A stretch of DNA of 64,000 nt. Origin: Chthoniobacterales bacterium (GTDB taxonomy: Bacteria > Verrucomicrobiota > Verrucomicrobiia > Chthoniobacterales > UBA6821). The notes under the pieces were generated by a model, which worked only from the letters and a program-made list of their open reading frames with translations, ran no database searches and was not told where the DNA came from. Shown here one piece after another: positions 6,452-42,818 of the stretch. The stretch spans positions 5,101-69,100 of the forward strand of contig JAIEQL010000014.1 in assembly GCA_019747735.1 (NCBI GenBank), given 5' to 3'. Both the position numbers and the translations under genes were made by a program. Within the stretch, counting starts at the first letter, position 1. Each line of letters starts with the position of its first letter.

Positions 6452-9400
6452 ATGAAAAATCATTTACTATTACTACTCCTAAGCGCCTGTGCGCTGGCAC
6501 CCTTGCCCGTAAGCGCGATGATAGAAGCGGATAAAAAAGAGGAGCATAAAGAGTCGAGTGATTCAAAAAAAACCCTCGAAAAAAATACCTACGAAACATT
6601 GTTAGAGGCTCAGAAAGCAGCAGCTGAAAGAGTTAACAATCCTGCGGCTAACAACAATACAGAGATTAAGTTCGAAGCGTTTGTTGAGAAGGAAGAGATC
6701 ATCGATGATAACACTCTGAAACCGACTCCCACTGCTGATCCTCAGTCCAACTCGTCACTAGTTGACGCTGATGAAGAAAGTGAAAAGGAAGATCTTTTCG
6801 ATCTCACCACCCTGGAACAAAGAACCCAAGAGGCTCGAGAGATCGTTGCTGATTTAGGAGGAAAAGGACCAGCCATTTCAGAACAAGCACTCCGTGACCT
6901 TTATCACACTTGGTCACAACGCTACCAGCGTTACCAAAAAGCACTTCAAGATCTGCAACAGCAAAGTGAAATTGGTATTGCAGGTGAGCAAATTGAAGAT
7001 CGGCTTGGAGAGTTAGTGAAGGTTTCTCAAAAGGCTCAAGAGGCTCTTGAAACAAGCCTGCGAAGTATTACTCAGGAGCTGACACGTGCTGCTGGCACTA
7101 AAAAATGGGACCCTCTTATTGATGAGAAAAAAACAACTCAAAAAGAAAGAACTCAGGAACAAGAGAAAGAGCTTTTAGAACAAGAAAAAACAACAGCTCT
7201 TAAGCAATTTGAGAAACTTCTGAATGATGTTAATTCTTTGCTTTATGATGATAGGCCTCAGGTTTCCTTAACTTCTTACAAAGAAAAGCACCAACCCTTT
7301 TTTAAAGAGCTAAGAACAGTAGCAGAAAAACAAAAAAGAGCGTATCAGGATCAAGAGCAAAGAGAGGAAACCTCTTCCCTTCTTCATGCTTGGGAAAAAG
7401 TGCTCGAGATGATTCCTGAACTAGAAAAAAATCACAGGGAATGGAAAGAAACTTTTTCTGCTAAAGAAAAAGCCATTGTGGATGCCAATCTCATGATTGC
7501 TTGGAGCTCCTTTCAAGAAGGAATGGCTTACGCCAGAGGAGACAAAGAGAGTGCAGCGCTTTGGGAGAAGAGTGGAGATTTATTGGGGCAAGTGAAAACT
7601 GCTTGGAATCAAAATGAAAAAACAAAAGCAGAGCGATTAAAGAAACAAGCTTGTACCTTGGGCGGTTGGGGAAATTGGCCCGGAGCTGCTTATGCTCACG
7701 GAAAAGCTCGTGAGGCCAGAGCTCGGGGAGATGAGCTTGGAAACCAAGAAGCTGCTCTTTGGGAGAAATCAGCAGAGATTTGGCAAGAACAAGCAGCTGC
7801 CGTAAAAGAAAAAGGAGGTGAAAAACAACCAGACAAATTAATGAAACAAGCTTTTGCCTTGGGCGGTCGGGAAAAATGGCCCGGAGCTGCTTATGCTTAC
7901 GGAAAAGCTCGTGAGGCCAGAGCCTGGGGAGATGAGCTTGGAAACCAAGAAGCTGCTCTTTGGGAGAAATCAGCAGCGATTTATAAAAAACAAGCAGATC
8001 CTTTAGAAAGAGGAGGTGAAAAACAAGCAGCTGCCGTAAAAGAAAAAGATGAAAAACAAGCAGACAAATTAATAAAACAAGCTCTTGCCTTGGGCGGTTG
8101 GGAAGGACTGCCTGGAGCTGCTTATGCTTACGGAAAAGCTCGTGAGGCCAGAGCCCGGAAAGATGAGCTTGGAGACAAAGAAGCTGCTCTTTGGGAGAAG
8201 TCAGCAGAGATTTGGCAAGAACAAGCAGCTGCGTTAGAAAAAGGAGATGAAAAACAAGCAGCTGCCGTAAAAGGAAAAGATGAAAAACAAGCAGAGCTAT
8301 TAAAGAAACAAGCTCTTGCCTTGGGCGGTTCGGAAAATTGTCCCGGAGCTGCTTATGCTTACGGAAAAGCTCGTGAGGCCAGAGCCTGGAAAGATGAGCT
8401 TGGAGACAAAGAAGCCGTTCTTTGGGAGGAAGCAGCAGATCAATTGGCAGCTGGAGATGAAGAGCAAACAGAGCCATTAAAGAAACAAGTTAGTGCTTTA
8501 AATTTAAATAGCAGTTCGGATGGCAGCCCGTTTTATTTTTATAGAAAAGCTCGTGAGGCGAGAGCCTGGGGAGATGAGCTTGGAAAGCAAGAAGCTGCTC
8601 TTTGGGAGCAAGTAGTAGATAAATTGGCAGCTGCTTTACGAGAAGGAGATTCGACCAAAGCAAAGCTATTAAAGGAACAAGCTCTTGCCTTGGGCGGTTT
8701 TGAATGGATGCCCGGAGCTGCTTATGCTTACAGAAAAGCTCGTGAGGCCAAAGCCCAAGGAGATGAGCTTGGGGACAAAGAAGCTGCTCTTTGGGAAAAA
8801 TCAGCTGAGATTTGGAAAAAACAAGCAGCTGCGTTAGAAAAAGGAGATGAAAAACAAGCAGCTGCCGTAAAAGAAAAAGATGAAAAGCAAGCAGAGCTAT
8901 TAAAGAAACAAGCTCTTGCCTTGGGCGGTCACGCAGGCTGTCCCGGAGCTGCTTATGCTTACGGAAAAGCTCGTGAGGCCAGAGCCCGGAAAGATGAGCT
9001 TAGAAAGAAAAAAACTGCTCTTTGGGAGGAGTCAGCTGAGATTTATAAAGAACAAGCAGCTGCTTTAGCAAGAGGAGATGAGCAAAAAGCTATGCGGCTA
9101 TTTCTTCGAGCTGCTTATTTAGAAAATTCTGACTCTTTTATAAAGCACCTTGGAGAAAAAATAGAACAGCAGTTTACAGTGATTGATGAATGTCGCAAAA
9201 AATCTCAAGAAGCAATTGCTGCAGGAAATCAAGAAGAAGGAGGGTGCTGGAATAAGGCTGCTGATGCACTTAATGAAAGTGCAATGAGCTGGACTTATGA
9301 GTCGATTGACTATCATCGGAAGGCCAAGTCAGCAAACGAAAATCCTGCTCTAGTAGCGTTATACGAAAAAGCCATTTTCCAAACCGAAACTGTTGCAGGT

Positions 9401-12400
9401 TTATTAGATAAGTATGCCGAGGCTGTTGTAACCCAAAAGAGCATTCAAGAGTTAGATCAAAAACAAGAAACACTGACTCTCGAAAAAAAACGGTTCTGGG
9501 AATTAAAAGAGCAAATTGGAAAAGAAGAACAGTTAACGCAAGTAAGAGAACAGTTGAGATGGGAAGAGAGAGGTGGCTCGCTATTAGGAAAAGGCAAGGT
9601 AAAATCCAAACAGCATCAATTAAAGGAAGATTCCTACGTCACGAAGCTTCCAGCATCATCGGCAAACGAAGTAACAGATCAACAGGTTGACGAACACGAT
9701 ATCACTGAAAAAATCACGAAGGTAAATGAGGTGCTCTCGCGCTTGGATGGTGCTTATGGGCAAGCCATGACTCTTTATCAAAAAGCAAAACAGACTCGGA
9801 TCAATCGTCATGCTAAAGATCGCTGGAGTGAGGCTGTGTTTGCTTGGAAAGGCCTGCTGGATCAGCTCAACGATGTTGCACAGATGAATGAGGAGGTCAA
9901 AGAGCCCGTTGCTTCTTTGTTGCGCATGCAAGCGAACCAAAAGCGACAAACGAACATGGATGAGTTTTTAAAAAATGAAAAAAAGACTCAAGTGCGTTTG
10001 TTAGAAGCCCAGCTACGCCATGCAGAGAGTCAAGCGCAGGCTCATTTTTACGAGGCGCAGACTACGGTGTTGGATGAACAGAGGCTCCCTTTATTAGAAA
10101 AAGCCGTTCAAAATGCAAAGGAAACAACAGCAGCATGGGAGTTGTTAAAGAAGCATGACGGTTTAGAAATGCCCAACAATCTCATTAACAAAATAGAAGT
10201 AGAACAGCTTCCACATTGGTTGACGGTTCAGAAACCTTACTACGAAGCCCTCTATGCTCATGTTGCGTTTGAAATAGCCAAAACAGCCGCTCTCTTAGCG
10301 CCACTGCAGGAGAAAGAGCATCGTTGGAATGAGGCAATGAGGCAAGGGCAGGAGGCACACACTCTACTAGGTGATAGTGTTGCTCTTTTTCAAAATCAGC
10401 TAAGTCTCGTTGAGGAGACTACAAAGAAGCAGTGGCACTCTGCCTTAAAAAATGTAGAGGAAAAGAGTAATGCTTTAAAAACGTTTTTGAGCGAAGGTGA
10501 ACAGTTAAAAGAAAGTGATATTGCTCAAACAAAGATTCAGCAAGAGGCTTTAGCTCAACTTCCCACTCAGCTCTCCTCAACTGCTTTCGTTGAAAAAAAT
10601 AATCCAGAGCTTGAGGTTAAGGCTGCGACAGGAGCAAAAAAGTCCTCTATTTCTTCTCCACAAGGAGAAAGGACACCACAAAAATACAGTCCCCCACACT
10701 CTTCTCTCCTGCCGTTTTTTGATGAAGTGAAAAAGGACTATCCAGAGGCTGAACTCATTGATCAAAGGGAGTTTTGGCTAGATCCTTGGCAAAGAAAAAC
10801 AGTTTTAATTTTAAAAATTCCGACAGTAACTAAGCAAATTCCAGCATCACGATATCTCCGTGTAGAAAGAATACTCGATACATCTATCAATAGGGCTGAA
10901 CGAAGAGAGATGTATGCTGATGAATTAATTGTCAAACTCAAGGAGGATGAGAATCCTGAAGCGTTCTTAGCTGACATGAAGTCTGAAGTTGACGAGATTG
11001 AGCCTTTTTCTATTTTAAAAAATTCTTATCGTCTCTTGCTCAAAGAGCACTCTTTTGATTCCTTAGAAAAAACCCAAGCAAAAATAAAAGAAAAAAATTT
11101 GCCTGTCATCAGCTGTGCCCCAAATTATTTAGACAAAGAGTTAGTAAGCTTTAATGATCCACAATACCAACAAGGCCATCAGTGGAATCTTGAAAAAATT
11201 GATATGGAAACTGCTTGGGAGCATGTTAGGCCAAGGATGGAGCAGCTCTCTGAGGATCAGTTTCCTGTTGTAGGAATCTTAGATTCTGGAGCTCGTATTT
11301 ATCACGAGGATCTGGAAGGAAATTTTTATGAAGATAGCGAAGGGGGGATCGGTATTGATGGCTTTGATACAAGCGAGCATTGGCCCAGTGATGATCGTGG
11401 TCATGGAAGTATGTGCGCAGGTATCATTGGGGCTATTTGCGATAATGAGAGGGGGATAGCTGGTATTGCTTGGAAAGTAAAATTGATGATTTGTAAAATT
11501 GCTGAACCAAAAAGGCCAGGAGAAGTGGCAACAGTTGACTCAAAAGCACGCGACGATGCTCTACAATGGGCTCTTAACGAGTTTGTAAATAAGAGGCACA
11601 TCAACATTCCTGTTTTTAATTATAGCTATGGATTAAAAGAGCCAATGGCTTTTTATCAGTCAATAATAGACCAGGCTCCTCATGCAATCATTGTGAGGGC
11701 AGCTGGAAACCAAGGTTGTAATAATGACTTTAATTCATCTTGTATTGAAGAGAGCCAATTTCACAAAAATGTCTTAGTCGTTGCTGCCACAGATGAAGAG
11801 GATCAGTTGGCTGCTTTTTTAGACCAAAATGGTCTACCAGTTGGTTCTTCCCATTATGGGCCTGCAACTGTCCATTTGGCTGCGCCAGGGGTTCGTATTA
11901 CAGCTACTGGTGCAGAGAGCAATAATCACTATGATACTTCTCAAGGAACCTCCCTTGCTGCGCCTCATGTAGCAGCTGTATTGGCTTTGATGCAGCCACA
12001 ATTTTCTCATCTTCCTAATTTCAATAATGAATTTTTAATAGATCGCTTACTGGCAACTACTGATAAAATTGACTCTCTTAAAAATAAAACAATCGCAGGA
12101 CGTCTCAATGCTGAAAGGGCAGTAGACTTAAAGCTTCCGCCAGCTATTATTGGCTTTTGGAAAGGGGCAAGTAATGCTGGAACGGAGGCGTATAAAGCAT
12201 TCAACGAGATTCATAGAAAAGAGAGAGACATCTTTTGCGGAGAAAACAAGCTGCTTTTTAGCAATCTACAAGGAGATCAACTTGCTTTTGCTGAGGAACG
12301 CGTTCGCGTAAATGGGCTTTATCAAGAACTTGATCAGCTTTATGAAGAGGCTCTCGATAAAGCTGAGAAAGCAAAAGAAGCATGGGAAAAGTTTTCTCAT

Positions 12401-12718
12401 AATTCCCAGCAACAAGCATCTGCTAATTTGCAAGAACAGACTTATTGGGAGCGTGAACAATCGGATGCGGAGAAGTATATCAGAACTTGGGAAGACAATA
12501 TAAGTAATCAGGAGCTCTGGTATGAATGGGACCAAAGAAGAAGAGCACTAGAAACTCAAGCTCTAGCAATTAAAATGGGAGAGGTTCCCCAAGTATGGGA
12601 TAGAGTGTTAGAGCAGTATAAAACTCTTCAAGATGAGACTCCCCCTAGCATCGGTTCTTTCCATCCTTTTTTAAATGTTTTGCTTGAAAAAAAAGAAATT
12701 CTTCGCAGTGAACCCTAG
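6452..12718 (+). CDS. Giant secreted repeat protein with C-terminal subtilase (peptidase S8) module; paralog 1 of 3
   Basis: ATG at 6452 gives signal peptide MKNHLLLLLLSACALAPLPVSAM (the track TTG start is 6398). It has the shared head block LEQRTQEAREIVADLGGKGPAI, 67/77-aa repeats, an I9-like propeptide (ELIVKLKED..SCAPNYL) and an S8 triad (see domain feature). Confidence 0.9.
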   Translation: MKNHLLLLLLSACALAPLPVSAMIEADKKEEHKESSDSKKTLEKNTYETLLEAQKAAAERVNNPAANNNTEIKFEAFVEKEEIIDDNTLKPTPTADPQSNSSLVDADEESEKEDLFDLTTLEQRTQEAREIVADLGGKGPAISEQALRDLYHTWSQRYQRYQKALQDLQQQSEIGIAGEQIEDRLGELVKVSQKAQEALETSLRSITQELTRAAGTKKWDPLIDEKKTTQKERTQEQEKELLEQEKTTALKQFEKLLNDVNSLLYDDRPQVSLTSYKEKHQPFFKELRTVAEKQKRAYQDQEQREETSSLLHAWEKVLEMIPELEKNHREWKETFSAKEKAIVDANLMIAWSSFQEGMAYARGDKESAALWEKSGDLLGQVKTAWNQNEKTKAERLKKQACTLGGWGNWPGAAYAHGKAREARARGDELGNQEAALWEKSAEIWQEQAAAVKEKGGEKQPDKLMKQAFALGGREKWPGAAYAYGKAREARAWGDELGNQEAALWEKSAAIYKKQADPLERGGEKQAAAVKEKDEKQADKLIKQALALGGWEGLPGAAYAYGKAREARARKDELGDKEAALWEKSAEIWQEQAAALEKGDEKQAAAVKGKDEKQAELLKKQALALGGSENCPGAAYAYGKAREARAWKDELGDKEAVLWEEAADQLAAGDEEQTEPLKKQVSALNLNSSSDGSPFYFYRKAREARAWGDELGKQEAALWEQVVDKLAAALREGDSTKAKLLKEQALALGGFEWMPGAAYAYRKAREAKAQGDELGDKEAALWEKSAEIWKKQAAALEKGDEKQAAAVKEKDEKQAELLKKQALALGGHAGCPGAAYAYGKAREARARKDELRKKKTALWEESAEIYKEQAAALARGDEQKAMRLFLRAAYLENSDSFIKHLGEKIEQQFTVIDECRKKSQEAIAAGNQEEGGCWNKAADALNESAMSWTYESIDYHRKAKSANENPALVALYEKAIFQTETVAGLLDKYAEAVVTQKSIQELDQKQETLTLEKKRFWELKEQIGKEEQLTQVREQLRWEERGGSLLGKGKVKSKQHQLKEDSYVTKLPASSANEVTDQQVDEHDITEKITKVNEVLSRLDGAYGQAMTLYQKAKQTRINRHAKDRWSEAVFAWKGLLDQLNDVAQMNEEVKEPVASLLRMQANQKRQTNMDEFLKNEKKTQVRLLEAQLRHAESQAQAHFYEAQTTVLDEQRLPLLEKAVQNAKETTAAWELLKKHDGLEMPNNLINKIEVEQLPHWLTVQKPYYEALYAHVAFEIAKTAALLAPLQEKEHRWNEAMRQGQEAHTLLGDSVALFQNQLSLVEETTKKQWHSALKNVEEKSNALKTFLSEGEQLKESDIAQTKIQQEALAQLPTQLSSTAFVEKNNPELEVKAATGAKKSSISSPQGERTPQKYSPPHSSLLPFFDEVKKDYPEAELIDQREFWLDPWQRKTVLILKIPTVTKQIPASRYLRVERILDTSINRAERREMYADELIVKLKEDENPEAFLADMKSEVDEIEPFSILKNSYRLLLKEHSFDSLEKTQAKIKEKNLPVISCAPNYLDKELVSFNDPQYQQGHQWNLEKIDMETAWEHVRPRMEQLSEDQFPVVGILDSGARIYHEDLEGNFYEDSEGGIGIDGFDTSEHWPSDDRGHGSMCAGIIGAICDNERGIAGIAWKVKLMICKIAEPKRPGEVATVDSKARDDALQWALNEFVNKRHINIPVFNYSYGLKEPMAFYQSIIDQAPHAIIVRAAGNQGCNNDFNSSCIEESQFHKNVLVVAATDEEDQLAAFLDQNGLPVGSSHYGPATVHLAAPGVRITATGAESNNHYDTSQGTSLAAPHVAAVLALMQPQFSHLPNFNNEFLIDRLLATTDKIDSLKNKTIAGRLNAERAVDLKLPPAIIGFWKGASNAGTEAYKAFNEIHRKERDIFCGENKLLFSNLQGDQLAFAEERVRVNGLYQELDQLYEEALDKAEKAKEAWEKFSHNSQQQASANLQEQTYWEREQSDAEKYIRTWEDNISNQELWYEWDQRRRALETQALAIKMGEVPQVWDRVLEQYKTLQDETPPSIGSFHPFLNVLLEKKEILRSEP
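7540..9120 (+). repeat. In-frame tandem array of 201/231-bp (67/77-aa) repeats inside giant gene 1
   Basis: The landmark cc(c/t)ggagctgcttatgct recurs at 7679, 7880, 8111, 8342, 8711 and 8942. Unit: PGAAYAYGKAREARA.GDELG..EAALWEKSAEIW.EQAAA...GDEKQA..LKKQALALGGW. Confidence 0.9.
11180..12125 (+). other. Subtilase S8 catalytic domain of giant gene 1
   Basis: Asp VVGILDSGARIYHEDL, His DDRGHGSMCAGIIGA, oxyanion Asn VRAAGNQG and Ser SQGTSLAAPHVAAVLALM, all in canonical order. Confidence 0.88.
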
Positions 12719-12763
12719 TTAAGGCCTTGCTTGTAAGGTGGTGAAAGAAGTTTTTTTTGGCTG

Positions 12764-12906
12764 AGAGGGTGTCTTGAAAAGACTAAAATTGCGCATTACG
12801 GCGTCGCTCCAGTGCTCGTGTCCTCGAGTATGTCCATATACACTGCGGGTCTGTGCGCTTCGCTCCTGGTACTGCATCAATTTTATTCATTTTCAAGACA
12901 CCCTCT
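12764..12906. mobile_element. MITE-like element, family A, copy A2
   Basis: Same 143-bp element as 2966..3108 with 3 mismatches by eye. Termini agagggtgtcttgaaaag / cattttcaagacaccctct. Confidence 0.8.
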
Positions 12907-12970
12907 GAAGCAAGTTCAACTTTTGACCTCGACTCTTCTTTTTAAATTTTTAGAAAATTTAAAAAGAAGA

Positions 12971-13045
12971 TGGAGGCGGAGGTCGGAATCGAACCGACGA
13001 ATGGGGCTTTTGCAGAGCCCAGCCTTACCACTTGGCTACTCCGCC
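12971..13045 (-). tRNA. tRNA-Cys (anticodon GCA), CCA encoded
   Basis: Reverse complement GGCGGAG..GGGCT-CTGCAAA-AGCCC..GGTTCGATTCCGACC-TCCGCC-T-CCA. Acceptor and anticodon stems pair perfectly. Confidence 0.9.
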
Positions 13046-13074
13046 GTAAATTTAGTTCTAAAAAATCAGAAGAA

Positions 13075-13146
13075 TGGGCAGTGAGGGATTTGAACCCCCG
13101 ACCAACTCGGTGTAAACGAGCCGCTCTACCGCTGAGCTAACTGCCC
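13075..13146 (-). tRNA. tRNA-Val (anticodon TAC)
   Basis: Reverse complement GGGCAGTTAGCTCAGCGGTAGAGC-G-GCTCG-TTTACAC-CGAGT..GGGGGTTCAAATCCCTC-ACTGCCC-A. Confidence 0.9.
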
Positions 13147-13226
13147 TGAAAAGGAGCTGATAACGATCTCGTTCTTTTCGCAAGGAGGCAAGCTTTTTTT
13201 CTTAATTTAACCCCGACCTTGCAGGA

Positions 13227-13261
13227 TCTGCAGCCTGCAGCCTATAGTCTAGAGCCTACAG
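13227..13261 (+). repeat. Five degenerate heptanucleotide tandem repeats (consensus cctacag) in the glgP leader
   Basis: tctgcag cctgcag cctatag tctagag cctacag, ending 15 nt before the ATG at 13277. The same heptamer occurs in 4 perfect copies at 29742..29769. Confidence 0.75.
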
Positions 13262-13276
13262 CCTTTTCAATTTCTT

Positions 13277-17241: not shown

Positions 17242-17243
17242 AA

Positions 17244-18631: not shown

Positions 18632-18716
18632 GCCGGTGTGGCGAAATGGCAGACGCAAGGGACTTAAAATCCCTTTTCGCGAAAGCGGAGTGTGGGTTCG
18701 AGTCCCGCCACCGGCA
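18632..18716 (+). tRNA. tRNA-Leu (anticodon TAA), long variable arm
   Basis: GCCGGTG..AGGGA-CTTAAAA-TCCCT-TTCGCGAAAGCGGA-GTGGGTTCGAGTCCCGC-CACCGGC-A. 85 nt, class II tRNA. Confidence 0.9.
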
Positions 18717-18915: not shown

Positions 18916-21900
18916 TTACTTTTTTTGATTCTTAGCCAGAGCTAGAGCTTCTACCTGCCTTTGAAGCTCACTTGCTTCAGCTTCTTTTTTCTGAGCATCT
19001 TGCCGATAAGATTCAGCTTCTTTGGCGTAAACTTGATGCCACCACCAGGATGTAGCTTCTTTTTGCTTTCCGTTTTTCTCTGCCTCTGCAGCATAGCTGT
19101 AACAATAAGCTGCGTTACCTAATGCCTCTGCTATTTCTTCTTGCAACGCTGCTATAGCTTCATCTCCTTGATTCAATGCCTCTGCTTTTGCTTTCAATGC
19201 TTCTGCTTGAGCTTCGCGAGCTTTCCCAGCTTGAATGAAGAGGTCTCTTGCTTTTTGATCCTTATTTTTCTCTGCCTCTGCAGCATTGCGGTAACAATCA
19301 AGCGCGCAATTGCTCTCTACTAATACCTTTGCTATTTTTTCTTGCAGTGCTGCGGTAACTTCATCTTTTCGACTCAACGCTTCTGCTTGAGCTTCGCGAG
19401 CTTTCCCAGCTTGAATGAAGAGGTCTCTTGCTTTTTGATTTCCTTCTTTCTCTGCCTCTGCTGCAAGGTTATAATAATAGGCTGCCCTTCCTAATGCTTC
19501 TGCTATTTTTTCTTGCAACGCTGCAGTAGCTTTATCTCCTCTATCTAATGCTTCTGCTTGAGCCTCGCTGGCTTTTCCTGCTCGAACATAAAATTCAACT
19601 GCTTTTTCGTTTCCGTGCGATTGTGCTTTAGCGGCCTCAATATAGGCATCTAATGCCTTATCATTTTTCCCTGCTATTGCAGCTGCGATGAGTTCATGGA
19701 GTCTTTTGGCTTTTTCATCTCCCTGAGAGGGAGCTTTCAAGAACTCTTGAAGCTCACTTGCCTCCGCTTCTTTGGCTTGAGCTTTATGCCAGTAGTATTC
19801 AGTATTTCCCTCTGCTGCATATGTGGCTGCGCTGTCACTCCATGGTCCTAATGCCTCTGCTATTTTTTCTTGGATCGCTGCGGTAACTTGATCGCCTCTT
19901 TTCAACGCCTCTATCCGAGCTTCACAAGCCTCTCTCGCTTGCATGTAGAGTTTCGCTGCTTTTTGATTTCCTTTTTGCCCTTCCTTTGCGGCATAGCTGT
20001 AACAATAAACTGCGTTACCTAATGCCTCTGCTATTTCTTCTTGCAACGCTGCTATAGCTTCATCTCCTTGATTCAATGCCTCTGCTTTTGCTTTCAATGC
20101 TTCTGCTTGAGCTTCGCGAGCTTTCCCAGCTTGAATGAAGAGGTCTCTTGCTTTTTGATCCTTATTTTTCTCTGCCTCTGCAGCATTGCGGTAACAATCA
20201 AGCGCGCAATTGCTCTCTACTAATACGTTTGCTATTTTTTCTTGTAACAATGCGATGGTAATTTGCCCTTTTTTCAAGGTCTCTGCTTGAGCTTCACGAG
20301 CTTTTCCTGCTTGGAAGTACAGTTTAGCTACTTCTTGATTCCCTTCTTTCTCTGCCTTTGCGGCATATGTATAATAAGCAGCTGCACCAGCATCATTCCT
20401 GAAGCTGTCACTCCATCCTAATGCTCCAGCTATTCCTAATCCCATGGGTTCAGTAAAAGCATGTTTAGCTTGAGCATGCATTTCAGAAGCTCTTTGGCGA
20501 TATTTTTCCACTCTTTTAGAGCGCATCCATTTTTCTCGTAATTTTGAAAATTCTTCTGGCTGTTCAACACTCTTCGTTCCCCAATCCAAAATCTTTTGGC
20601 GCTCTTTTAATTTTTGAGAACGCTCCTCATAATAAGCGAGAGCTTGTGTTAGAAAGAAGCGAGATAAAAGTGGGCTGGTCTTTTTCTCTAACTCCTTTAA
20701 CGTCCCTTCAATCTTTTCCAAAAAACCTTCTTCGCTTGCTATTGCTTCCTTGTAGGGCTGATCTTCTTCTTCTACTTTTTCATGGTATCTCTCTTGCTCT
20801 GCTAAAGAGAGTTTTTTCCAAGCATTTGAATCTCCACCATGATGCTCTTCTGCTGCTTGATGAATTTTTTGAAAATTCTCTTCCTCAATTCCTTTTTCAA
20901 TATTCTTCCAGATTTGTTCGATACGATTTAAACGCCTATTTTCTTTTTTAAAAAGTTTAAAGGCTTCTTCTTCTCCTTGTAAGACTCCCTGGAGTTGAGC
21001 CTGGTGGCCATGCAAAACAGCTTGGTCTTTAATATAATTTTTTGGATCTTGAAAAATTGCCAATTGCTTTTCAAGTTGTTCTTTACTTGCTTGAACACGT
21101 ACCTCCCAAGCCTTTTCTGCTCCTGGAATTTTTTCTCGAGCAGCACGGAGAGCTTCTTCATAGACTGTTTTTTTATACTCTTGAGCAGCGAGGACTGTTG
21201 TCAGGTTTTCTTCGGAGAAGGCAAATGCATTTTTTGCTTTCTCATCTAATAGTTGCTTTAAGGAGTAACGATAAGGTTCGAGCTGTCTATCGGCTTTTTG
21301 CTCAGGGCTTAAATTCTTCTCTTCTTCAAATCGCTTCCAACGCGTGAGCACAGCACTATCATTTTCTGCTAATTGCTCTAATACTTTTTGAAGGCTTTTT
21401 TCTGGTAGATCCAAGCGAGAGAGAGAATAGCTCTGCTTAGCTTTTTCTCTCCATCGTTTTTCTATCTTTTCTATTTCTTCTTGTTGGCTCTTAAAGTCTG
21501 ATTCAGAAAGTCCTTTCTTTTCTTTAAGAGCCTCTAGGGAGTTTTCCACTTGATTTCGTGCTTCTAGACGTTTCATGAAATCATTCCAATGTGTTTTCAT
21601 GAGCGTAGGATCGACGTAGCTCTTCATTACTTCTTTTTGCTGCTCTTGGAGTGAGAGGTCATCAGCTACTTCTAAAATTTTGAAGATCATCTCTTTTGCT
21701 GAAATGCCAAAGGCTTTTCCTTCTTGTAGAGCTAGCACTTGCCATTCTTCGGTAAGGTTTTTTTCTTCGTAAAAAGTTTTTTGAAATTGTTGCTGAAGGC
21801 TTTCTAAAGTTACTGGCTGGCTCTCTATTGCTCTTTTACTTTTCTGAGTGCCTTGGCTCAGAAAGCTTAAAAAACTTCTTGTTGTAACATCAGTAGGAGT

Positions 21901-23988: not shown

Positions 23989-24067
23989 TGGGTTTTTATG
24001 GGAAGTCAGAAAAAACTAAAACTTAGTTGCTCACTTCAAAACAAGTTTTTTTTAGAGGTAAGTTACA

Positions 24068-29702: not shown

Positions 29703-29769
29703 TGACAACCGACAACTGACAACCTTTCCTTCAATCGTGCTCCTACAGCCTACAGCCTACAGCCTACAG
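29703..29769 (+). repeat. Two heptanucleotide tandem arrays in the murC-murB leader: (t/c)gacaac x3 and cctacag x4
   Basis: tgacaac cgacaac tgacaac at 29703-29723, and cctacag x4 (perfect) at 29742-29769. The second array is inside the GTG-started ORF but upstream of the alternative TTG start at 29776. Confidence 0.8.
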
Positions 29770-32205: not shown

Positions 32206-32223
32206 TCTGACCCCTTTGTCTTC

Positions 32224-34792: not shown

Positions 34793-34814
34793 GGCAGTTA
34801 GAGAAAGGTATATC

Positions 34815-35824: not shown

Positions 35825-36000
35825 TTAGAGCATTTTAAATAAAACTACAGCCATTTTAGAGCATCATTAAAAATTTTTGTAGTCGATGCAGTGCCAGGAG
35901 CTGAGGCGCACAGCGAGGGAGTGTATAGCCAATACTCGATGGAGCGAGCACCGAAGCGACGACGCAATGAGCGGCTACAGAATTTTTTAATATGCTCTAA
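35825..36000. mobile_element. MITE-like element, family B, copy B2
   Basis: 176 bp. Termini ttagagcattttaaataaaactacagcc / ggctacagaattttttaatatgctctaa (imperfect TIR). It differs from B3 (53618..53793) at 2 positions by eye. Confidence 0.8.
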
Positions 36001-36233
36001 AATAAACTGTTACTTTTTTTCAGTCGTCCTGCATAGCAGGGGGACTGAAAGCTTGCAATGCTTTAGGTTTAAGAAACGAAAAGATCGTCAAATTTTTATT
36101 TCACTCCCATTTAACAAAATCTTACATTGAGATGCTGAATTGAGTTAGAAACGGGGCATCGAATATGGACAAAAAATTTGAATAGACCTCAACTTTTTGA
36201 ATCTCATTTCCAACCAACTCTAAAAAACCAATT

Positions 36234-39200
36234 ATGAAAAAGCTTCCTCTTCTTTTGCTCCTGAGCGCCTGTGCGCTCGCTCCCCTGCGCGTAAGCGCGA
36301 TGATAGAAGGAGATGAAAAAGAGGGGTATAAAGAGTCGAGTGATTTAAAAAAAACCCTCCAAAAAAATACGAACGAAACATTGTTAGAGGATCAGAAAGC
36401 AGCAGCAGAAAGAGTTAACAATCCTGCGGCTAACAACAATACAGAGATTAAGTTCGAAGCGTTTGTTAAGAAGGAAGAGATCATCCAGGATTCGACTATG
36501 AAATCGTCTCCCAATGCTGATCCTCAACCCAACTCGTCACTAGTTGACGCTGATGAAGAAAGTGAAAACGAAAAGGAAAATCTTTGGGATCTAGACATAC
36601 TAGAACAAAGAACCCAAGAGGCTCGAGAGATCGTTGCTGATTTAGGAGGAAAAGGACCAGCCATTTCAGAACAAGCACTCCGTGACCTTTATCACACTTG
36701 GTCACAACGCTACCAGCGTTACCAAAAAGCACTTCAAGATCTGCAACAGCAAAGTGAAATTGGTATTGCAGGTGAGCAAATTGAAGATCGGCTTGGAGAG
36801 TTAGTGAAGGTTTCTCAAAAGGCTCAAGAGGCTCTTGAAACAAGCCTGCGAAGTATTACTCAGGAGCTGACACGTGCTGCTGGCACTAAAAAATGGGACC
36901 CTCTTATTGATGAGAAAAAAACAACTCAAAAAGAAAGAACTCAGGAGCAAGAGAAAGAACTTTTAGAACAAGAAACAACAACAGCTCTTAAGCAATTTGA
37001 GAAACTTCTGAATGATGGTAGTTCTTTGCTTTATCGTGATAGACCTCAGGTTTCCTTAACTTCTTACCAAGAAAAGTACCAATCCTTTTTTAACGAGTTA
37101 AGAACAGTAGCAGAAAAACAAAAAAAAACGTGTAAGGATCAAGAGCAAAGAGAGGAAACCCCTTCCGTTCTTCATGCTTGGGAAAAAGTGCTCGAGATGA
37201 TTCCTTCACTAGAAAAAAATCATCGGGAATGGAAAGAGACTTTTTCTGCTAAAGAAAAAGCCATTGTAGATGCCAATCTCATGATTGCTTGGAGCTCCTT
37301 TCAAGAAGGAATGGCTTACGCCAGAGGAGAAAAAGAAGCGGCTCTTTGGGAGGAGTCAGCAGAGATTTCGAAACATCGAGCTGCTGCTTTACGAGCAGGA
37401 GATGAAGAGCAAGCAGAGCGATTAAAGAAACCAGCTTATTCCTTGGGCGGTTGGGAAAAATGGCCCGGAGCTGCTTATGCTTACGGAAAAGCTCGTGAGG
37501 CCAGAGCCTGGGGAGATGAGCTTGGGAACCAAGAAGCTGCTCTTTGGGAGGAATCAGCTGCGATTTTGAAAGAGTACGCAGCTGCGTTAGGAAGAGGAGA
37601 TGAGACCCAAGCAGAACGATTAGGCAAACAAGCTTATACCTTGGGCGGTTGGGAAAATTGGCCCGGAGCTGCTTATGCTTACGGAAAAGCTCGTGAGGCC
37701 AGAGCCCAGGGAGATGAGCTTGGAAACAAAGAAGCTGCTCTTTGGGAGGAATCAGCTGCGATTTGGAAAGAACAATCAGCTGCGTTAGCAAAAGGAGATG
37801 AGCCCCAAGCAGAACGATTAAAGAAACAAGCTTATGCCTTGGGCGGTTACGCAGACTGGCCCGGAGCTGCTTATGCTTACGGAAAAGCTCGTGAGGCCAG
37901 AGCTCGAGGAGATGAACTTGGGAATAAAGAAGCCGCTCTTTGGGAGGAGTCAGCAGAGATTTCGAAACATCGAGCTGCTGCTTTACGAGCAGGAGATGAA
38001 GAGCAAGCAGAGAGATTAAAGAAACAAGCTTATGCCTTGGGCGGTTGGAAAAATTGTCCCGGAGCTGCTTATGCTTACGGAAAAGCTCGTGAGGCCAGAG
38101 CTCGAGGAGATGAACTTGGGAATAAAGAAGCCGCTCTTTGGGAGGAGTCAGCTGCGATTTGGAAAGAACAAGCTGCTGCTTTACGAGAAGGAGATGAAAA
38201 GCAAGCAGAGCTATTAAGTAAACAAGCTAATGCTTTAAGTAATAGTACTTCTACTGTGAGTCCGCTTTATTCCTATGAAAAAGCTCGTGAGGCCAGAGCT
38301 CAAGGAGATGAGCTTGGGAACAAAGAAGCTACTCTTTGGGAAGATATAGCAGAGATTTATAAAAAACAAGCTGCTGCCGTAAAAGGAAAAGATGAAAAGC
38401 AAGCAGAGCTATTAAGTAAACAAGCTAATGCTTTAAGTAATAGTACTTCTACTGTGAGTCCGCTTTATTCCTATGAAAAAGCTCGTGAGGCTAGGGCCAA
38501 AGAAGATGAGCTTGGAGAAAAAGAAGCTGCTCTTTGGGAGAAATCAGCAGAGATTTGGAGAGAACGATCAGCTGCGTTAGGAAGAGGAGATGAAGAGCAA
38601 GCAGTCAAATTAAGAAAACAAGCTTATGCCTTAGGTGGTTGGGACAGTTCTAAAGGAGCTGCTTATGCTTATGGAAAAGCTCGTGAGGCTAGAGCCCGGA
38701 AAGATGAGCTTGGAAAAAAAGAAGCTGCTCTTTGGGAAGAGTCAGCTGCGATTTATAAAGAGCAAGCATCTGCGTTAGCAAAAGGAGATGAAAAGCAAGC
38801 AGGGCGATTAAGTAAACAAGCTTATGCTTTAAGTAATAGTACTTCTACTGTGAGTCCGCTTTATTGCTATGGAAAAGCTCGTGAGGCCAAAGCCCAAGGA
38901 GATGAGCTTGGAGAAAAAGAAGCTGCTCTTTGGGAGGAGGCAGCAGAGATTTCGAAAGAGTACGCAGCTGCGTTAGGAAGAGAAGATGGTACTCCCCGAG
39001 CAGAGCAACTAGAGAAACAAACTCTTGCCTTGGGCGGTGGGGCAGATTCGCCTGGAGCCGCTTATGCTTACGGAAAAGCTCGTGAGGCCAGGGCCCGAGG
39101 AGATGAGCTTGGGGAAAAAGAAGCCGCTCTTTGGGAGGAGTCAGCTGCGATTTTGAAAGAGCACGCAGCTGCGTTAGCAAGAGGAGATGGCTCCGAAGCA

Positions 39201-42200
39201 GAGCAATTAAAGAAACAAGCTTATGCCTTGGGCGGTTGTGGAGGATGGCCCGGAGCTGCTTATGCTCACGGAAAAGCTCGTGAGGCGAGAGCCAAAGGAG
39301 ATGAGTTTGGAGAGAAAGAAGCTGCTGCTCTTTGGGAGGAGTTAGCTGCGATTTATAAAGAACAAGCAGCTGTTTTACGAGCAGGAGATGAAAAGCAAGC
39401 AGGGCGATTAGAGAAACAAGCTCTTGCCTTGGGCGGTTGGGGGAAATCGCCCGGAGCTGCTTATGCTTACAGAAAAGCTCGCGAGGCCAGAGCCCAAGGA
39501 GATGAGCTTGGAGAAAAAGAAGCTGCTCTTTGGGAGAAGTCAGCAGAGATTTGGCAAGATCAAGCAGCTGCCGTAAAAGGAAAAGATGAAAAGCAAGCAG
39601 GGCGATTAGAGAAACAAGCTCTTGCCTTGGGCGGTTGGGGAAATTGGCCTGGAGCTGCTTATGCTTACAGAAAAGCTCGTGAGGCCAGGGCCCGGGGAGA
39701 TGAGCTTGGAGACAAAGAAGCTGCTCTTTGGGAGGAGTCAGCAGAGATTTGGAAAGAGTACGCAGCTGCGTTAGGAAGAGGAGATGAAAATCAAGCAGAG
39801 CGGTTAAAGAAACAAGCTTATGCCTTGGGCTGCGGTTGGGCAGATTTGCCCGGAGCCGCTTATGCTTACGGAAAAGCTCGTGAGGCCAGGGCCCGGGGAG
39901 ATGAGCTTGGGGAAAAAGAAGCCGCTCTTTGGGAGGAGTCAGCTGCGATTTTGAAAGAGCACGCAGCTGCGTTAGGAAGAGGAGATGAAAATCAAGCAGA
40001 GCGGTTAAAGAAACAAGCTTATGCCTTGGGCTACGGTTGGGCAGATTTGCTCGGAGCCGCTTATGCTTACGGAAAAGCTCGTGAGGCGAGAGCCAAAGGA
40101 GATGAGTTTGGAGAGAAAGAAGCTGCTGCTCTTTGGGAGGAGGCAGCAGAGATTTGGAAAGAGTACGCAGCTGCGTTAGGAAGAGGAGATGAAAATCAAG
40201 CAGAGCGATTAAAGAAACAAGCTTATGTCTTGGGCGGCGGTTGGGCAAATTCGCCTGGAGCCGCTTATGCTTACGGAAACGCTCGTGAGGCCAGGGCCCG
40301 GAAAGATGAGCTTGGGGACAAAGAAGCTGCTCTTTGGGAGGAGTCAGCAGAGATTTGGAAAGAGCAAGCATCTGTGTTAGCAAAAGGAGATGAAAATCAA
40401 GCAGTGCGATTAAAGAAACAAGCTCTGAAAATAGAAGAGCAAATATATCTGTTGAAACAACATCAGTTAGAGAAAGATGTTGCTATTTTTAAGGCTGCTA
40501 GTGCTGCTAAGGCTTATTACGATGCGAATGAAGAGATTGGAAAGGCTCTTTATTCTACAGAGCCTCATAAACGTGACAGCCTTGAGGAGCATCTTAAAGT
40601 GGCACTTGATGCGCAAAACATTGAAACAAACTCTCAAGGAGACTCAGCTTCAGAACTTAATCTTAAAGAGGAGCTGTATCGTCTTCAAAATGAGGCTGCT
40701 AAAAAAACTAGTAGTGCTATGACTGCTTACCGTCAAGCGTTAGAAACTGGTGAGGAAGGTGACTTATTGGAAGCTTTCAAAAAAGCTGTTGCAACATATG
40801 ATAGTTGGGAAGAGGTTAAAAACTATTGCAATGAACTTAATCATTTAGGAAGTCTTTGGAAAGACTCGCTGGAAGTCGCAAAATGTGAGCTAGCTGCCTG
40901 GACCAGGGCTCTTAACCAGTTTGACCCTCAGCACTCAGAATCACTTAGATTGCCTCCAGAAAGAGATTTGCAAGAATTTCCATTCTCTACTCTTTGTAAA
41001 ACATTTAATACATCTGAATCAGGAATACAAAAAGAGATAAGAATATTAAATACTATGTTCAAATATCCGCTGATTCGAGCAGAAGAAAAATTAAATCGAC
41101 CCATTACTTATATGGTTGCTAATCAGCTGCGGTTAATACAAGGAAAAGAAAACTTAGAAAAATTTTGCAATAATGAAGAAGTTAAAAAATTAGGTAAGCC
41201 AATCAGAAAATCAGAGGACAGCTATTTGTTTGAATTTAATAATGAATTAATCGGATCTCAATTTCCTCCAGATTCACTAGAACGTTTATTAATTGAGCAT
41301 CAGGTGGATTATGTTCCTAATTATATGGTAAGTTTAGAGATGGATTCTGGATCTAACTCTCAAAAAAAAATAAATTTTGGAAATATATTTAAGAATTTTG
41401 TTGATAATCTTTCTGTTGATTCGAAAGAGAAGGCCAGAAGTGCAAATAATACAAAAAAGGAACTTATGGCAAGTGAGTCAAAAGAAAAAAAGCTTCCTCT
41501 ATTAGAGAAAGGGGAGGAAGAGCCTTGGAATCTAAAACATATTCATGCTCCTGAGGCTTGGGAGATTTTAAAAAAAGCAGAAGAAGAAGGGCGTTTAAAT
41601 AATGATGAGATCACTATTGCTTTTATTGATTCGGGAGTTGACATCAGTAAATTCGAGAGGCCAGGGCAAGAAGGTGGAAAAATAATTTATCGCTGTAACT
41701 ATACTGATAAAAAATTAAATGATGATGTATCTGATGGAGCAGGGCATGGTACTGCTTGTATTGAAATAGCTAGCTCTGTTCTTGGACATCAAAAAAATCT
41801 TTCAAAAAAAGTTAATTTTATAGCCTGCAAAATCACTAAGGATCGTTCTTTTGATACTGACAGTTTTTTACAAGCTCTTCAGTGGGCTTGTGAAAAAGGA
41901 GCAAAGATTATTAATATTAGCGCTGGCTGGCATAGGGATAGTACCTTAAATAAGAAAGAACGACATGATAATTTAAAAGAAAAACTTAATAATCTCCCAG
42001 ATAGTCAATATGATGATAAAGACATTGAAGAGGCAATAGAAGAGAATGATAAGAAATGGAATAAAGATGATAAAGAGTTGGATAAAGTATTATTTAATTC
42101 TCTTAATAAAAAAATTATCATTGTTAATTCGGCAGGGAATTTAGGCTTAGATATTAGTCAAGCTAACAATCAACATTACCCTTCTCATTATGAATACAAA

Positions 42201-42818
42201 TATGAAAATATAATAGTTGTTGGAGCTACTACAAAAGAGGGAAAACTATTACGCAGAAGCAATTATGGAAGAAAAGTTCATTTAGGAGCTCCTGGAGCAG
42301 AAGTTTTTTCTAGGCTCCTAGAAAGGAATGTATCTGGAACATCGTATGCAACACCTCATGTTTCTGGCAGCATAGGAGTAATGGAGCAGTTAAAAGAACT
42401 TAATCCTAAAACCAGTCTTGTGAACTCAACAGATCCTATTGAAGATGATCAAGAAAGGTACATTTTTGGTGGAGCCCTTAATCTTGAAGATGCTTTACTA
42501 GGAAAAACTACCAAATGGCCAGAACGTTATAAGAAAAAAACTCATAAACAAATAGAAGACACCTTAAAGAATAATTGTACTGAAACGGACGACACTTATC
42601 AAAACATGATGCAGATAGCTACGGTGGGTCAGCAGTTTAACAATGGGTGCCATGCCCATTCTGATAAAAATAATGTTTTTACTTCAGTACCAGCAGTAGC
42701 TTCCACTGCTGCTCAAAATTTTCAAGAAGTCGCTTCCGCTGTTGCTCAAGATTTCAAAGCTTTATTTGTTGATGCATTTTCTTCTCGTGCTCCTATAGAA
42801 AAAGGAGGAACAGACTAA
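36234..42818 (+). CDS. Giant secreted repeat protein with C-terminal subtilase (peptidase S8) module; paralog 2 of 3
   Basis: 2194 aa. Signal peptide MKKLPLLLLLSACALAPLRVSAM. The head is nearly identical to gene 1. About 15 units of 66-67 aa are followed by a helical region, propeptide-like segment (..VDYVPNYMV) and S8 triad. Confidence 0.9.
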   Translation: MKKLPLLLLLSACALAPLRVSAMIEGDEKEGYKESSDLKKTLQKNTNETLLEDQKAAAERVNNPAANNNTEIKFEAFVKKEEIIQDSTMKSSPNADPQPNSSLVDADEESENEKENLWDLDILEQRTQEAREIVADLGGKGPAISEQALRDLYHTWSQRYQRYQKALQDLQQQSEIGIAGEQIEDRLGELVKVSQKAQEALETSLRSITQELTRAAGTKKWDPLIDEKKTTQKERTQEQEKELLEQETTTALKQFEKLLNDGSSLLYRDRPQVSLTSYQEKYQSFFNELRTVAEKQKKTCKDQEQREETPSVLHAWEKVLEMIPSLEKNHREWKETFSAKEKAIVDANLMIAWSSFQEGMAYARGEKEAALWEESAEISKHRAAALRAGDEEQAERLKKPAYSLGGWEKWPGAAYAYGKAREARAWGDELGNQEAALWEESAAILKEYAAALGRGDETQAERLGKQAYTLGGWENWPGAAYAYGKAREARAQGDELGNKEAALWEESAAIWKEQSAALAKGDEPQAERLKKQAYALGGYADWPGAAYAYGKAREARARGDELGNKEAALWEESAEISKHRAAALRAGDEEQAERLKKQAYALGGWKNCPGAAYAYGKAREARARGDELGNKEAALWEESAAIWKEQAAALREGDEKQAELLSKQANALSNSTSTVSPLYSYEKAREARAQGDELGNKEATLWEDIAEIYKKQAAAVKGKDEKQAELLSKQANALSNSTSTVSPLYSYEKAREARAKEDELGEKEAALWEKSAEIWRERSAALGRGDEEQAVKLRKQAYALGGWDSSKGAAYAYGKAREARARKDELGKKEAALWEESAAIYKEQASALAKGDEKQAGRLSKQAYALSNSTSTVSPLYCYGKAREAKAQGDELGEKEAALWEEAAEISKEYAAALGREDGTPRAEQLEKQTLALGGGADSPGAAYAYGKAREARARGDELGEKEAALWEESAAILKEHAAALARGDGSEAEQLKKQAYALGGCGGWPGAAYAHGKAREARAKGDEFGEKEAAALWEELAAIYKEQAAVLRAGDEKQAGRLEKQALALGGWGKSPGAAYAYRKAREARAQGDELGEKEAALWEKSAEIWQDQAAAVKGKDEKQAGRLEKQALALGGWGNWPGAAYAYRKAREARARGDELGDKEAALWEESAEIWKEYAAALGRGDENQAERLKKQAYALGCGWADLPGAAYAYGKAREARARGDELGEKEAALWEESAAILKEHAAALGRGDENQAERLKKQAYALGYGWADLLGAAYAYGKAREARAKGDEFGEKEAAALWEEAAEIWKEYAAALGRGDENQAERLKKQAYVLGGGWANSPGAAYAYGNAREARARKDELGDKEAALWEESAEIWKEQASVLAKGDENQAVRLKKQALKIEEQIYLLKQHQLEKDVAIFKAASAAKAYYDANEEIGKALYSTEPHKRDSLEEHLKVALDAQNIETNSQGDSASELNLKEELYRLQNEAAKKTSSAMTAYRQALETGEEGDLLEAFKKAVATYDSWEEVKNYCNELNHLGSLWKDSLEVAKCELAAWTRALNQFDPQHSESLRLPPERDLQEFPFSTLCKTFNTSESGIQKEIRILNTMFKYPLIRAEEKLNRPITYMVANQLRLIQGKENLEKFCNNEEVKKLGKPIRKSEDSYLFEFNNELIGSQFPPDSLERLLIEHQVDYVPNYMVSLEMDSGSNSQKKINFGNIFKNFVDNLSVDSKEKARSANNTKKELMASESKEKKLPLLEKGEEEPWNLKHIHAPEAWEILKKAEEEGRLNNDEITIAFIDSGVDISKFERPGQEGGKIIYRCNYTDKKLNDDVSDGAGHGTACIEIASSVLGHQKNLSKKVNFIACKITKDRSFDTDSFLQALQWACEKGAKIINISAGWHRDSTLNKKERHDNLKEKLNNLPDSQYDDKDIEEAIEENDKKWNKDDKELDKVLFNSLNKKIIIVNSAGNLGLDISQANNQHYPSHYEYKYENIIVVGATTKEGKLLRRSNYGRKVHLGAPGAEVFSRLLERNVSGTSYATPHVSGSIGVMEQLKELNPKTSLVNSTDPIEDDQERYIFGGALNLEDALLGKTTKWPERYKKKTHKQIEDTLKNNCTETDDTYQNMMQIATVGQQFNNGCHAHSDKNNVFTSVPAVASTAAQNFQEVASAVAQDFKALFVDAFSSRAPIEKGGTD
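37325..40430 (+). repeat. In-frame tandem array of about 15 units of 198-201 bp (66-67 aa) inside giant gene 2
   Basis: The landmark cccggagctgcttatgct recurs at 37464, 37662, 37860, 38058, ..., 39249, 39450, 39648 and 39849. Unit: PGAAYAYGKAREARA.GDELG.KEAALWEESA.I.KE.AAAL..GDE.QAE.LKKQAYALGGW..W. Confidence 0.92.
41523..42500 (+). other. Subtilase S8 catalytic domain of giant gene 2 (with a large Lys/Asp/Asn-rich insertion)
   Basis: Asp ITIAFIDSGVDIS, His DGAGHGTACIEIASS, Asn VNSAGNLG and Ser VSGTSYATPHVSGSIGVM. There is an insert between the His and Asn blocks (RDSTLNKKERHDNLKEKLNN...DKELDKV). Confidence 0.85.

Follow-up and report, generated by a model that had tools for sequence, protein, structure and literature searches.

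Three giant open reading frames (ORFs) in a 64,000-nucleotide stretch of DNA (henceforth referred to as the window) from a metagenome-assembled genome (MAG) of Chthoniobacterales (Verrucomicrobiota; locus-tag prefix K2W99_) encode proteins that begin with the same kind of leader, consisting of a signal peptide, an acidic linker and a domain of ~108 aa (henceforth referred to as the ‘head’), and that carry different modules behind it (gene 1, the middle gene and gene 3; Table 1). The three genes belong to a family with at least 19 members in this one MAG, which we consider to be, on balance, a lineage-restricted family of giant Sec-exported modular effectors that are deployed in parallel and would all be trafficked or anchored by means of the constant head. 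A first-pass annotation of the window had proposed a constant head with exchangeable payloads, as in polymorphic effector or toxin families, and its central idea is borne out in that the same head is found ahead of an ADP-ribosyl cyclase (ARC) domain, of an S8 subtilase or of orphan modules.

The three ORFs are uninterrupted over 2088 (gene 1), 1689 (middle gene) and 2194 (gene 3) codons and lie where they had originally been annotated, except that the start of the middle gene moves by one codon: the family alignment favours the ATG at 23985 over the GTG at 23988 and, in the case of gene 1, the ATG at 6452 over an upstream TTG at 6398. For genes 1 and 3, the ratio of non-synonymous to synonymous substitution rates (dN/dS) amounts to 0.57 overall, with values from 0.32 (head region) to 0.75, and the N-terminus of the middle gene was separately recovered at 99% identity in two other public assemblies. 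Because the ORFs are intact, dN/dS lies in this range and fragments were independently recovered elsewhere, the three genes are not the decaying pseudogenes that the first-pass annotation had to reckon with.

The heads of genes 1 and 3 are 96% identical, and that of the middle gene is 50% identical to either. Since the head alone, with the signal peptide removed, still gives a BLASTP match with an E-value of 6e-22, the similarity is neither due to chance nor limited to the signal peptide, as had initially been conceivable, and a hidden Markov model of the head matches only the three genes, once in each, in a six-frame translation of the window. No match to the head was obtained from Pfam at E<=10 (the sole WXG100 match, with E 0.21, is noise), from NCBIfam or from PDB sequences. 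AlphaFold2 predicts a three-helix bundle (helices 10-28, 36-62 and 69-108; pLDDT 82.8, pTM 0.70), for which Foldseek found nothing in the PDB at E<=0.001 and only generic bundles below that standard. The profile and structure searches that the first-pass annotation had suggested have thus been run, and in none of these resources does the head correspond to a well-characterised domain or a known fold, in agreement with its having been left unnamed. At the end of the head, where homology between paralogues stops, there is a semi-conserved x-T-R, (A/M/I)-T-R, at aa ~211-212 of gene 1 and aa ~199-201 of the middle gene (R/K in ~15 and T in ~10 of 18 sequences), which on the alignment is a candidate processing site or recombination junction. 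We take it to be analogous in position to VENN in CdiA.

Upstream of the head, the near-identical signal peptides and the acidic stretch behind them were both seen in all three genes, as described earlier. The signal peptides follow the pattern MK..LLLLLSA(C/L)A(L/F)APL(P/R)VSA↓M (the arrow marks the predicted cleavage site), and the 76-91 residues after them are net acidic (D+E 24-26% vs K+R 13-14%); in the family, this linker is 75-90 aa long, low in hydrophobic residues and poorly conserved. Among 17 paralogue N-termini, the signal peptide (60% mean pairwise identity) and the head (46%) are better conserved than the linker (25%) and the sequence behind the head (11%). The ‘LSAC’ of the signal peptide had been considered as a possible lipobox, which is not supported for the family: its Cys occurs in only three of ~21 family N-termini (gene 1, gene 3 and the paralogue P0021), and the element that is kept across the family is a signal peptidase I (SPase I) site, (R/P)VSA↓M, about nine residues past the position of that Cys. 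Judged from these N-termini, the family is of the SPase I type and not of the lipoprotein type. Immediately upstream, a (T)AAAAACC motif lies 0-6 nt 5' of the ATG in all three genes (gtaaaaaccATG; ctaaaaaaccaattATG; cataaaaacccagtgATG; positions 6441-6451, 36220-36233 and, on the - strand, 23986-24001), and no obvious Shine-Dalgarno sequence is seen at their starts; the motif may represent a shared translation-initiation context or the edge of a recombining unit.

To what extent the head occurs elsewhere was determined by a profile search of 1.84 billion representative proteins, which gave 23 matches and 21 credible clusters; P0022 was discarded as a spurious repeat protein and P0023, a short and divergent match, is doubtful. 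This exhaustive search was needed because a word-index homology search with the three heads had yielded no more than a piece of the middle gene and a single partial paralogue. In the credible matches the head occurs once per protein, close to the N-terminus (~residues 85-250), and is followed by varied modules, so that the cross-genome census recommended by the first-pass annotation agrees with its picture of the family. The exception in position is P0005 (K2W99_03345), which is encoded on the contig beyond the window, beside the full member P0020 (K2W99_03350). Its annotated start coincides with the head, so that signal peptide and linker are lacking, which may reflect a wrongly called start, truncation of the gene or an orphan cassette. 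Cluster and exact-sequence look-ups placed 19 distinct head-bearing proteins, including the middle gene, in the window's own MAG, six of them on the same 144-kb contig as the window. A few further head proteins come from Logan assemblies of SRR124179xx runs and from the MAG K2W97_, and a scan of 185,579 species-representative genomes revealed no true relative of the head. Since relatives of the window's PGI, at 80-90% identity, are widespread in environmental Verrucomicrobia MAGs, the head family is much narrower than the lineage that carries it. A literature search for the habitat, using the sample and assembly accessions, returned nothing.

Two apparent relatives of the head were rejected in the course of these searches. 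Designed PPR repeats appeared when a 19-sequence profile was compared with the PDB, although solely through summed sub-threshold matches of 17 residues, each with an E-value of ~2e3. The only match among JGI metagenome contigs, L005 (Ga0247727_10106316, 982-2583), is a high-GC TPR protein that has just the helix motif ‘ELEQRIQEA..II’ in common with the head. Helix 1 of the head and its GKG turn resemble a PPR/TPR-type helix-turn, at a level that is not significant; together with the L005 motif, this may be a hint, likewise not significant, of a remote origin of the head from helical repeats.

With respect to the modules behind the head, ARC was found in eight of the members examined and S8 in three (genes 1 and 3 and P0027), while the remaining members gave no Pfam match. 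The CD38-like block that had been noticed straight after the head of the middle gene is an ARC domain: it matches solved bacterial ARC toxins (9ouf_A, E 1.1e-9; 9ro8_A, ‘ADP-ribosylcyclase toxin’, E 2.1e-6), and its matches to Pfam Rib_hydrolayse are sub-threshold (E 0.015 for the middle gene and 4.7e-5 to 1.2e-4 for paralogues). A word-index search with the domain gave no match. The catalytic residues of ARCtox have been defined by mutagenesis as W273, E299, W323 and E356 (PMC12605009), and all four are kept in the middle gene, where W, E, W and E sit in FWTG, TLEMT, ELWRY and IEKP. The corresponding columns, FW(T/S)G, T(L/I)E, xW and (I/V)E(K/R/L)P, are preserved in the middle gene and five paralogues; P0014 and P0019 have Phe in place of the second catalytic Trp. 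In Nac1, loss of the glutamate equivalent to that of TLE accompanies production of cyclic ADP-ribose (PMC12356396). Because this glutamate is present in the middle gene, its ARC is predicted to be of the hydrolase type, and NAD(P)+ glycohydrolase activity is expected from the sequence. The TLE glutamate is presumably the counterpart of CD38 E146. A PDB sequence search with the 1339 aa that follow ARC found no known domain. The ~800 aa of helical sequence reported for this region are present, but they are not unique as had been thought, being related over the full length to P0016 (collinear, 40% identity) and in part to P0008.

Genes 1 and 3 each encode a complete S8 subtilase, as first annotated, with matches to PF00082 (gene 1, E 1.5e-34, 120.1 bits; gene 3, E 1.1e-26, 94.3 bits; cut-off 21.8), a D/H/S triad in the aligned motifs D(S)G, GHG(S/T) and GTS(L/Y)A(A/T)PH, and the oxyanion Asn of (A)GN. 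Identity between the two domains is just 25%; their best PDB sequence matches are deseasin MCP-01 and thermitase, and they do not reach NCBIfam equivalog cut-offs. The I9-like propeptide that had been annotated upstream could not be confirmed, there being no Pfam I9 match even at E<=10 in gene 1, gene 3 or P0027. The ~80-120 aa upstream of S8 are conserved among the S8 paralogues, and some prodomain may thus exist there. Subtilisin is named among the releasing proteases of Sec-dependent polymorphic toxins (PMC3482391, Table 1), and the S8 domains may thus serve for processing and not be a payload.

Helical repeat arrays are present in all three proteins, as previously noted, with units of 60-77 aa in genes 1 and 3 and of ~60 aa in the middle gene, whose repeats are distantly related to those of the other two. 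The array of gene 3 contains two alternating unit variants, ‘...ALGGWxxWPGAAYAYGKAREARA’ and ‘...ALSNSTSTVSPLYSYEKAREARA’; as both also occur in P0021, the variants would either predate the paralogue split or have been exchanged between loci. Three 66-aa repeats, modelled with AlphaFold2 (pLDDT 92), form an alpha-solenoid with three helices per unit, and a fold search with this model gave only weak matches, to de novo designed helical repeats (best E 0.011). An identity with TPR or Sel1 repeats is not supported, there being no Pfam match to either at E<=0.1 on the full proteins. Likewise, the central region of gene 1 gave no known domain in a PDB sequence search, and C-termini of P0005, P0018 and P0011 (‘HALERM’) that resembled RNase- or BECR-type toxin domains gave nothing in Pfam at E<=1, and no claim is made for them. 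Opposite the repeat arrays there are long antisense ORFs of up to 512 aa (7491-8477, 37279-37791 and 38845-40383, all on the - strand), most likely a by-product of purine-skewed, stop-poor repeat DNA and not genes.

The divergence behind the head, which the first-pass annotation had attributed to exchangeable payloads, could be followed between individual paralogues. Residues 223-883 of genes 1 and 3, which comprise a pre-repeat module and the repeats, correspond to residues 1335-1964 of P0021 at 66-70% identity, whereas the head of P0021 is only 41-45% identical to theirs and is followed by ARC. Such alignments indicate that modules have demonstrably been shuffled between paralogues. Conversely, a tract of 344 bp that covers the head is exactly identical between gene 1 (6815..7158, +) and gene 3 (36603..36946), in flanks that are 83-92% identical; homology between the two genes begins at the ATG, and the DNA upstream is unrelated. 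On sequence grounds, the tract suggests gene conversion focused on the head, or else assembly collapse. Overall, the comparisons indicate that recombination or gene conversion maintains the uniformity of the leader, and that the modules downstream of it are shuffled.

We next consider the surroundings of the three genes. No immunity-like ORF was seen downstream of the ARC gene, which is followed by nothing but a tRNA-Leu, an ORF of 45 codons with a TTG start and, in convergent orientation, a PD-(D/E)XK transposase-like gene; 3' of gene 1 there are tRNAs and 3' of gene 3 a convergent gene of the glycogen-debranching type. No transporter or conserved partner gene was found near the three genes, and no neighbour is conserved across five loci (the three of the window and two of a related organism). 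In the related organism a T2SS-F gene (type II secretion system, T2SS) lies ~6.5 kb from a family member, which is neither adjacent nor specific.

The following mechanism would accommodate these results. The proteins would be exported by Sec and their signal peptides cleaved by SPase I. The head, as the first part to emerge, would couple every member to one and the same post-Sec step, either recognition by an outer-membrane export route (for example of the T2SS type) or anchoring or clustering at the surface, and its role would be one of targeting, anchoring or secretion recognition. The variable modules would act on non-self targets, with ARC depleting NAD(P)+ and the subtilases serving as effectors or as releasing proteases. 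Given that immunity genes are absent from the neighbourhood and that many paralogues coexist, parallel deployment of the set would most likely be directed at a eukaryote, as host or prey, or at extracellular substrates, and less probably at sibling bacteria.

Several points weigh against this interpretation. The function of the head is inferred, and genes for a secretion system, an anchor partner or a receptor did not turn up beside any member. ARC directly follows the head and is not C-terminal as in canonical polymorphic toxins. Most of the downstream sequence is without a recognisable toxin domain, so that the term ‘effector’ is an extrapolation from ARC and S8. The relatives identified by PGI are ordinary environmental Verrucomicrobia MAGs. 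The proteins, at >200 kDa, might never leave the periplasm. Finally, the sequence is a MAG assembly, in which collapse could affect both the repeat copy numbers and the tract of exact identity. A bolder version of the same interpretation is in our estimation unlikely. In it, the leader, with its unusually invariant signal peptide and three-helix head, would be the signal for an undescribed post-Sec export or host-delivery route in Verrucomicrobiota, by which effectors of >200 kDa, an NADase among them, would cross the outer membrane and perhaps enter eukaryotic cells; the MAG would then stand for an unrecognised lineage that is predatory or associated with a host and whose genome is chiefly invested in this arsenal.

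Classical antibacterial polymorphic toxins would likewise present a constant N-terminal part, a variable rest and signatures of recombination, in which case the head would serve for the trafficking of a contact-dependent or diffusible interbacterial weapon and ARC and the other modules would kill competing bacteria; ARC domains are established antibacterial toxins on many trafficking domains (PMC12605009, PMC12356396). However, the ARC gene is not followed by an immunity gene, its ARC is N-proximal, no type V, VI or VII secretion (T5, T6, T7) and no Rhs, PAAR or two-partner secretion (TPS) element occurs in the three proteins or the window, and many paralogues coexist in place of one locus with orphan cassettes, which makes this explanation quite improbable. 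The length of the proteins, their mostly helical predicted structure, the repeat arrays with two unit variants and the conserved signal peptide and N-terminus with gene conversion would also suit a variable surface-coat or adhesin family with long helical fibres anchored by the head, accessory enzymes and an antigenic or adhesive variation that arises from repeat number and module shuffling, and anchoring is indeed the role proposed for MAFB-N and APD1/2 (PMC3482391). This we regard as a minority possibility, since there is no conserved lipobox, the three C-termini have no sorting signal, beta-barrel or hydrophobic anchor, and the intact catalytic sites of ARC and S8 point to enzymatic action on targets.

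The head might, alternatively, be a removable pro-region, acting as an intramolecular chaperone or inhibitor and cut at x-T-R, possibly by the S8 of the family. The position of x-T-R where homology ends, the presence of S8 paralogues in the same family and the precedent of subtilisin as a processing protease of Sec-dependent polymorphic toxins (PMC3482391, Table 1) would be in keeping with this, but the same head precedes unrelated modules (ARC, repeats and orphan regions), for which reason a fold-specific chaperone or inhibitor role is unlikely and the explanation as a whole improbable. That the genes are chimaeras of a MAG assembly or decaying relics we consider highly improbable: metagenome assembly, long tandem repeats and a 344-bp exact duplicate do favour mis-assembly, but the ORFs are unbroken, dN/dS is <1, full-length paralogue pairs are kept at 40% identity, the N-terminus of the middle gene recurs at 99% in two other assemblies and members are present in independent Logan assemblies. 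On balance, we retain the view of the family as Sec-exported modular effectors with a constant head.

Relating the family to known systems, we note that it shares with polymorphic toxins as described by Zhang et al. (2012) a common N-terminal region with varied downstream domains and the recombination of modules and, with the Sec-dependent class that has lineage-specific domains, a signal peptide followed by a domain that is confined to a narrow lineage and expanded there. It is not filed among the canonical polymorphic toxins because a C-terminal toxin, an adjacent immunity gene and, among the neighbours, a signature secretion gene are all missing. Constant N-terminal domains after a signal peptide were described in 2012 for MAFB-N (Neisseria), Microscilla-N and APD1/APD2 (Amoebophilus), with surface anchoring or a new kind of secretion step suggested as the role of MAFB-N (PMC3482391, section 37). 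By analogy, the family appears to work like the MAFB-N/APD1-2 class, and it is not a member of any named family.

The likeness to MAFB-N of Neisseria MafB (PMC3482391) lies in a lineage-restricted globular domain that follows the signal peptide and is conserved among polymorphic paralogues. MAFB-N and the head are, however, unrelated in sequence (no match in Pfam, including DUF1020), and in contrast to MafB the family has neither a MafA-like conserved upstream lipoprotein gene nor immunity genes, its toxin module is not C-terminal, and its proteins are 5-10 times larger and come from Verrucomicrobiota. APD1/APD2 of Amoebophilus asiaticus, an amoeba endosymbiont, resemble the family in their many paralogues with a conserved N-terminus after the signal peptide and diverse downstream domains, in the presence of repeats (Sel1/TPR/ankyrin there, an orphan alpha-solenoid here) and in the absence of immunity genes (PMC3482391), and both sets would be deployed in parallel against a eukaryote. 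They differ in that APD1/APD2 follow a lipobox, whereas the Cys is not conserved here, and in their enzymes, which are those of the ubiquitin system there and ARC and S8 here; nor are the two detectably homologous, since no Amoebophilus protein, and likewise no Neisseria protein, was among the matches of the head profile to the 1.84 billion representatives.

At the level of single modules, the middle gene resembles the ARC toxins Tac1 and ARCtox (PDB 9ro8, 9ouf; PMC12356396, PMC12605009) in its alignment and its W/E/W/E, and the Sec-exported non-toxin Nac1 (PMC12356396) in combining a Sec signal peptide with the lack of an immunity gene next to it. In known ARC toxins the domain occupies the C-terminus of T6SS, T7SS, contact-dependent inhibition (CDI) or other carriers, whereas the predicted domain here comes first after the head and is followed by >1300 aa. 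PF00082, D/H/S and the oxyanion Asn are common to the S8 domains and to subtilases such as thermitase, subtilisin and deseasin, the difference being a far C-terminal location in proteins of 2100-2200 aa, behind a new leader and repeats. LXG/WXG-type toxins of T7SS likewise have all-helical constant N-terminal modules before variable toxins, including ARC, but LXG proteins have no Sec signal peptide and need T7SSb and Lap partners (Firmicutes), whereas the head follows a canonical signal peptide.

What is new here is the head domain, the phylum and the atypical order and size of the modules; the design principle has been known since 2012 (PMC3482391). The family would be a fourth, phylogenetically distant Sec-dependent family with a lineage-specific constant N-terminal domain, beside MAFB-N, Microscilla-N and APD1/2. 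Hypotheses on what such domains do date back to 2012, and we found no resolution in the literature; with a short, confidently modelled head, an easy read-out in the predicted NADase activity of ARC and ~20 natural fusions, the family offers a clean test bed. In addition, bacterial CD38-like enzymes are extended to a new carrier and to an N-proximal position in a giant protein without immunity gene, and an orphan alpha-solenoid repeat with three helices per unit is newly defined. The family occupies at least 77 kb of coding sequence in a seemingly small MAG, which suggests an interaction-centred lifestyle.

Table 1. Features of the three head-bearing genes (window positions; aa, amino acids; TRF, Tandem Repeats Finder)
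Gene	Feature	Position	Strand	Details
Gene 1	ORF	6452..12718	+	2088 aa; MBX9742486.1, annotated ‘S8 family serine peptidase’; leader, repeats, orphan helical region, S8, C-terminal tail
Gene 1	Signal peptide	6452..6517	+	aa 1-22; predicted SPase I site VSA↓M, from sequence reading and alignment of N-termini
Gene 1	Acidic, low-hydrophobicity linker	6518..6787	+	aa 23-112; D+E 26%, K+R 13%
Gene 1	Head	6788..7111	+	aa 113-220; predicted three-helix bundle
Gene 1	Tandem repeats	7636..9081	+	Periods 201/231 bp (TRF); 60-77-aa units ending ...GAAYAYGKAREARA
Gene 1	S8 catalytic domain	11264..12037	+	aa 1605-1862; D/H/S triad
Middle gene	ORF	18916..23985	-	1689 aa; leader, ARC, ~840-aa orphan helical region, ~60-aa repeat array
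Middle gene	Signal peptide	23920..23985	-	aa 1-22; LSAL, without Cys
Middle gene	Head	23362..23688	-	aa 100-208
Middle gene	ARC, ADP-ribosyl cyclase / NAD(P)+ glycohydrolase (CD38-like), predicted	22951..23313	-	aa ~225-345; matches to 9ouf_A, 9ro8_A
Middle gene	C-terminal helical repeats	19006..20415	-	~60-aa units (about 57-64 aa), …AGKAREAQAEAL…
Gene 3	ORF	36234..42818	+	2194 aa; MBX9742500.1; leader, 15.6 x 66-aa repeats, orphan region, S8, tail
Gene 3	Signal peptide	36234..36299	+	aa 1-22
Gene 3	Head	36576..36899	+	aa 115-222
Gene 3	Tandem repeats	37326..40424	+	198 bp x 15.6 copies (TRF); 66-67-aa units; predicted alpha-solenoid
Gene 3	S8 catalytic domain	41604..42395	+	aa 1791-2054; D/H/S triad

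The remaining neighbours in the window are housekeeping genes, among them those for MurG, Kup, glycogen phosphorylase, a CBS/CorC protein, a radical-SAM enzyme, DsbD and a MurC-MurB fusion, together with Liv ABC transporter components and pentose-phosphate genes. At the ends of two family genes, tRNA-Cys and tRNA-Val (12971-13146, -) abut the 3' end of gene 1 and tRNA-Leu (18632-18716, +) that of the middle gene, where the PD-(D/E)XK ‘transposase’ family gene (PF12784; 17705-18541, +) adjoins; these could be hot spots of insertion or recombination, or a coincidence. The MurC-MurB fusion is encoded by an ORF of 769 aa (29737-32046, +) in which the Mur ligase N, M and C domains are joined to FAD_binding_4 and MurB_C. 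Such a fusion has reportedly been found in Verrucomicrobium spinosum, which agrees with the verrucomicrobial assignment. A second fusion ORF (45111-46373, -) joins a 6-phosphogluconolactonase-type domain (Glucosamine_iso) to RpiB (LacAB_rpiB) and lies within a compact pentose-phosphate/glycolysis cluster (45111-53092) with G6PD, a 6PGD-like protein, Rpe, PGI, a ROK kinase and transaldolase. Towards the end of the window there are two genes unrelated to the head family, one for a protein of 554 aa with a eukaryotic-type Ser/Thr protein kinase domain (60306-61970, +) and one for a TPR protein of 673 aa (61975-63996, -).

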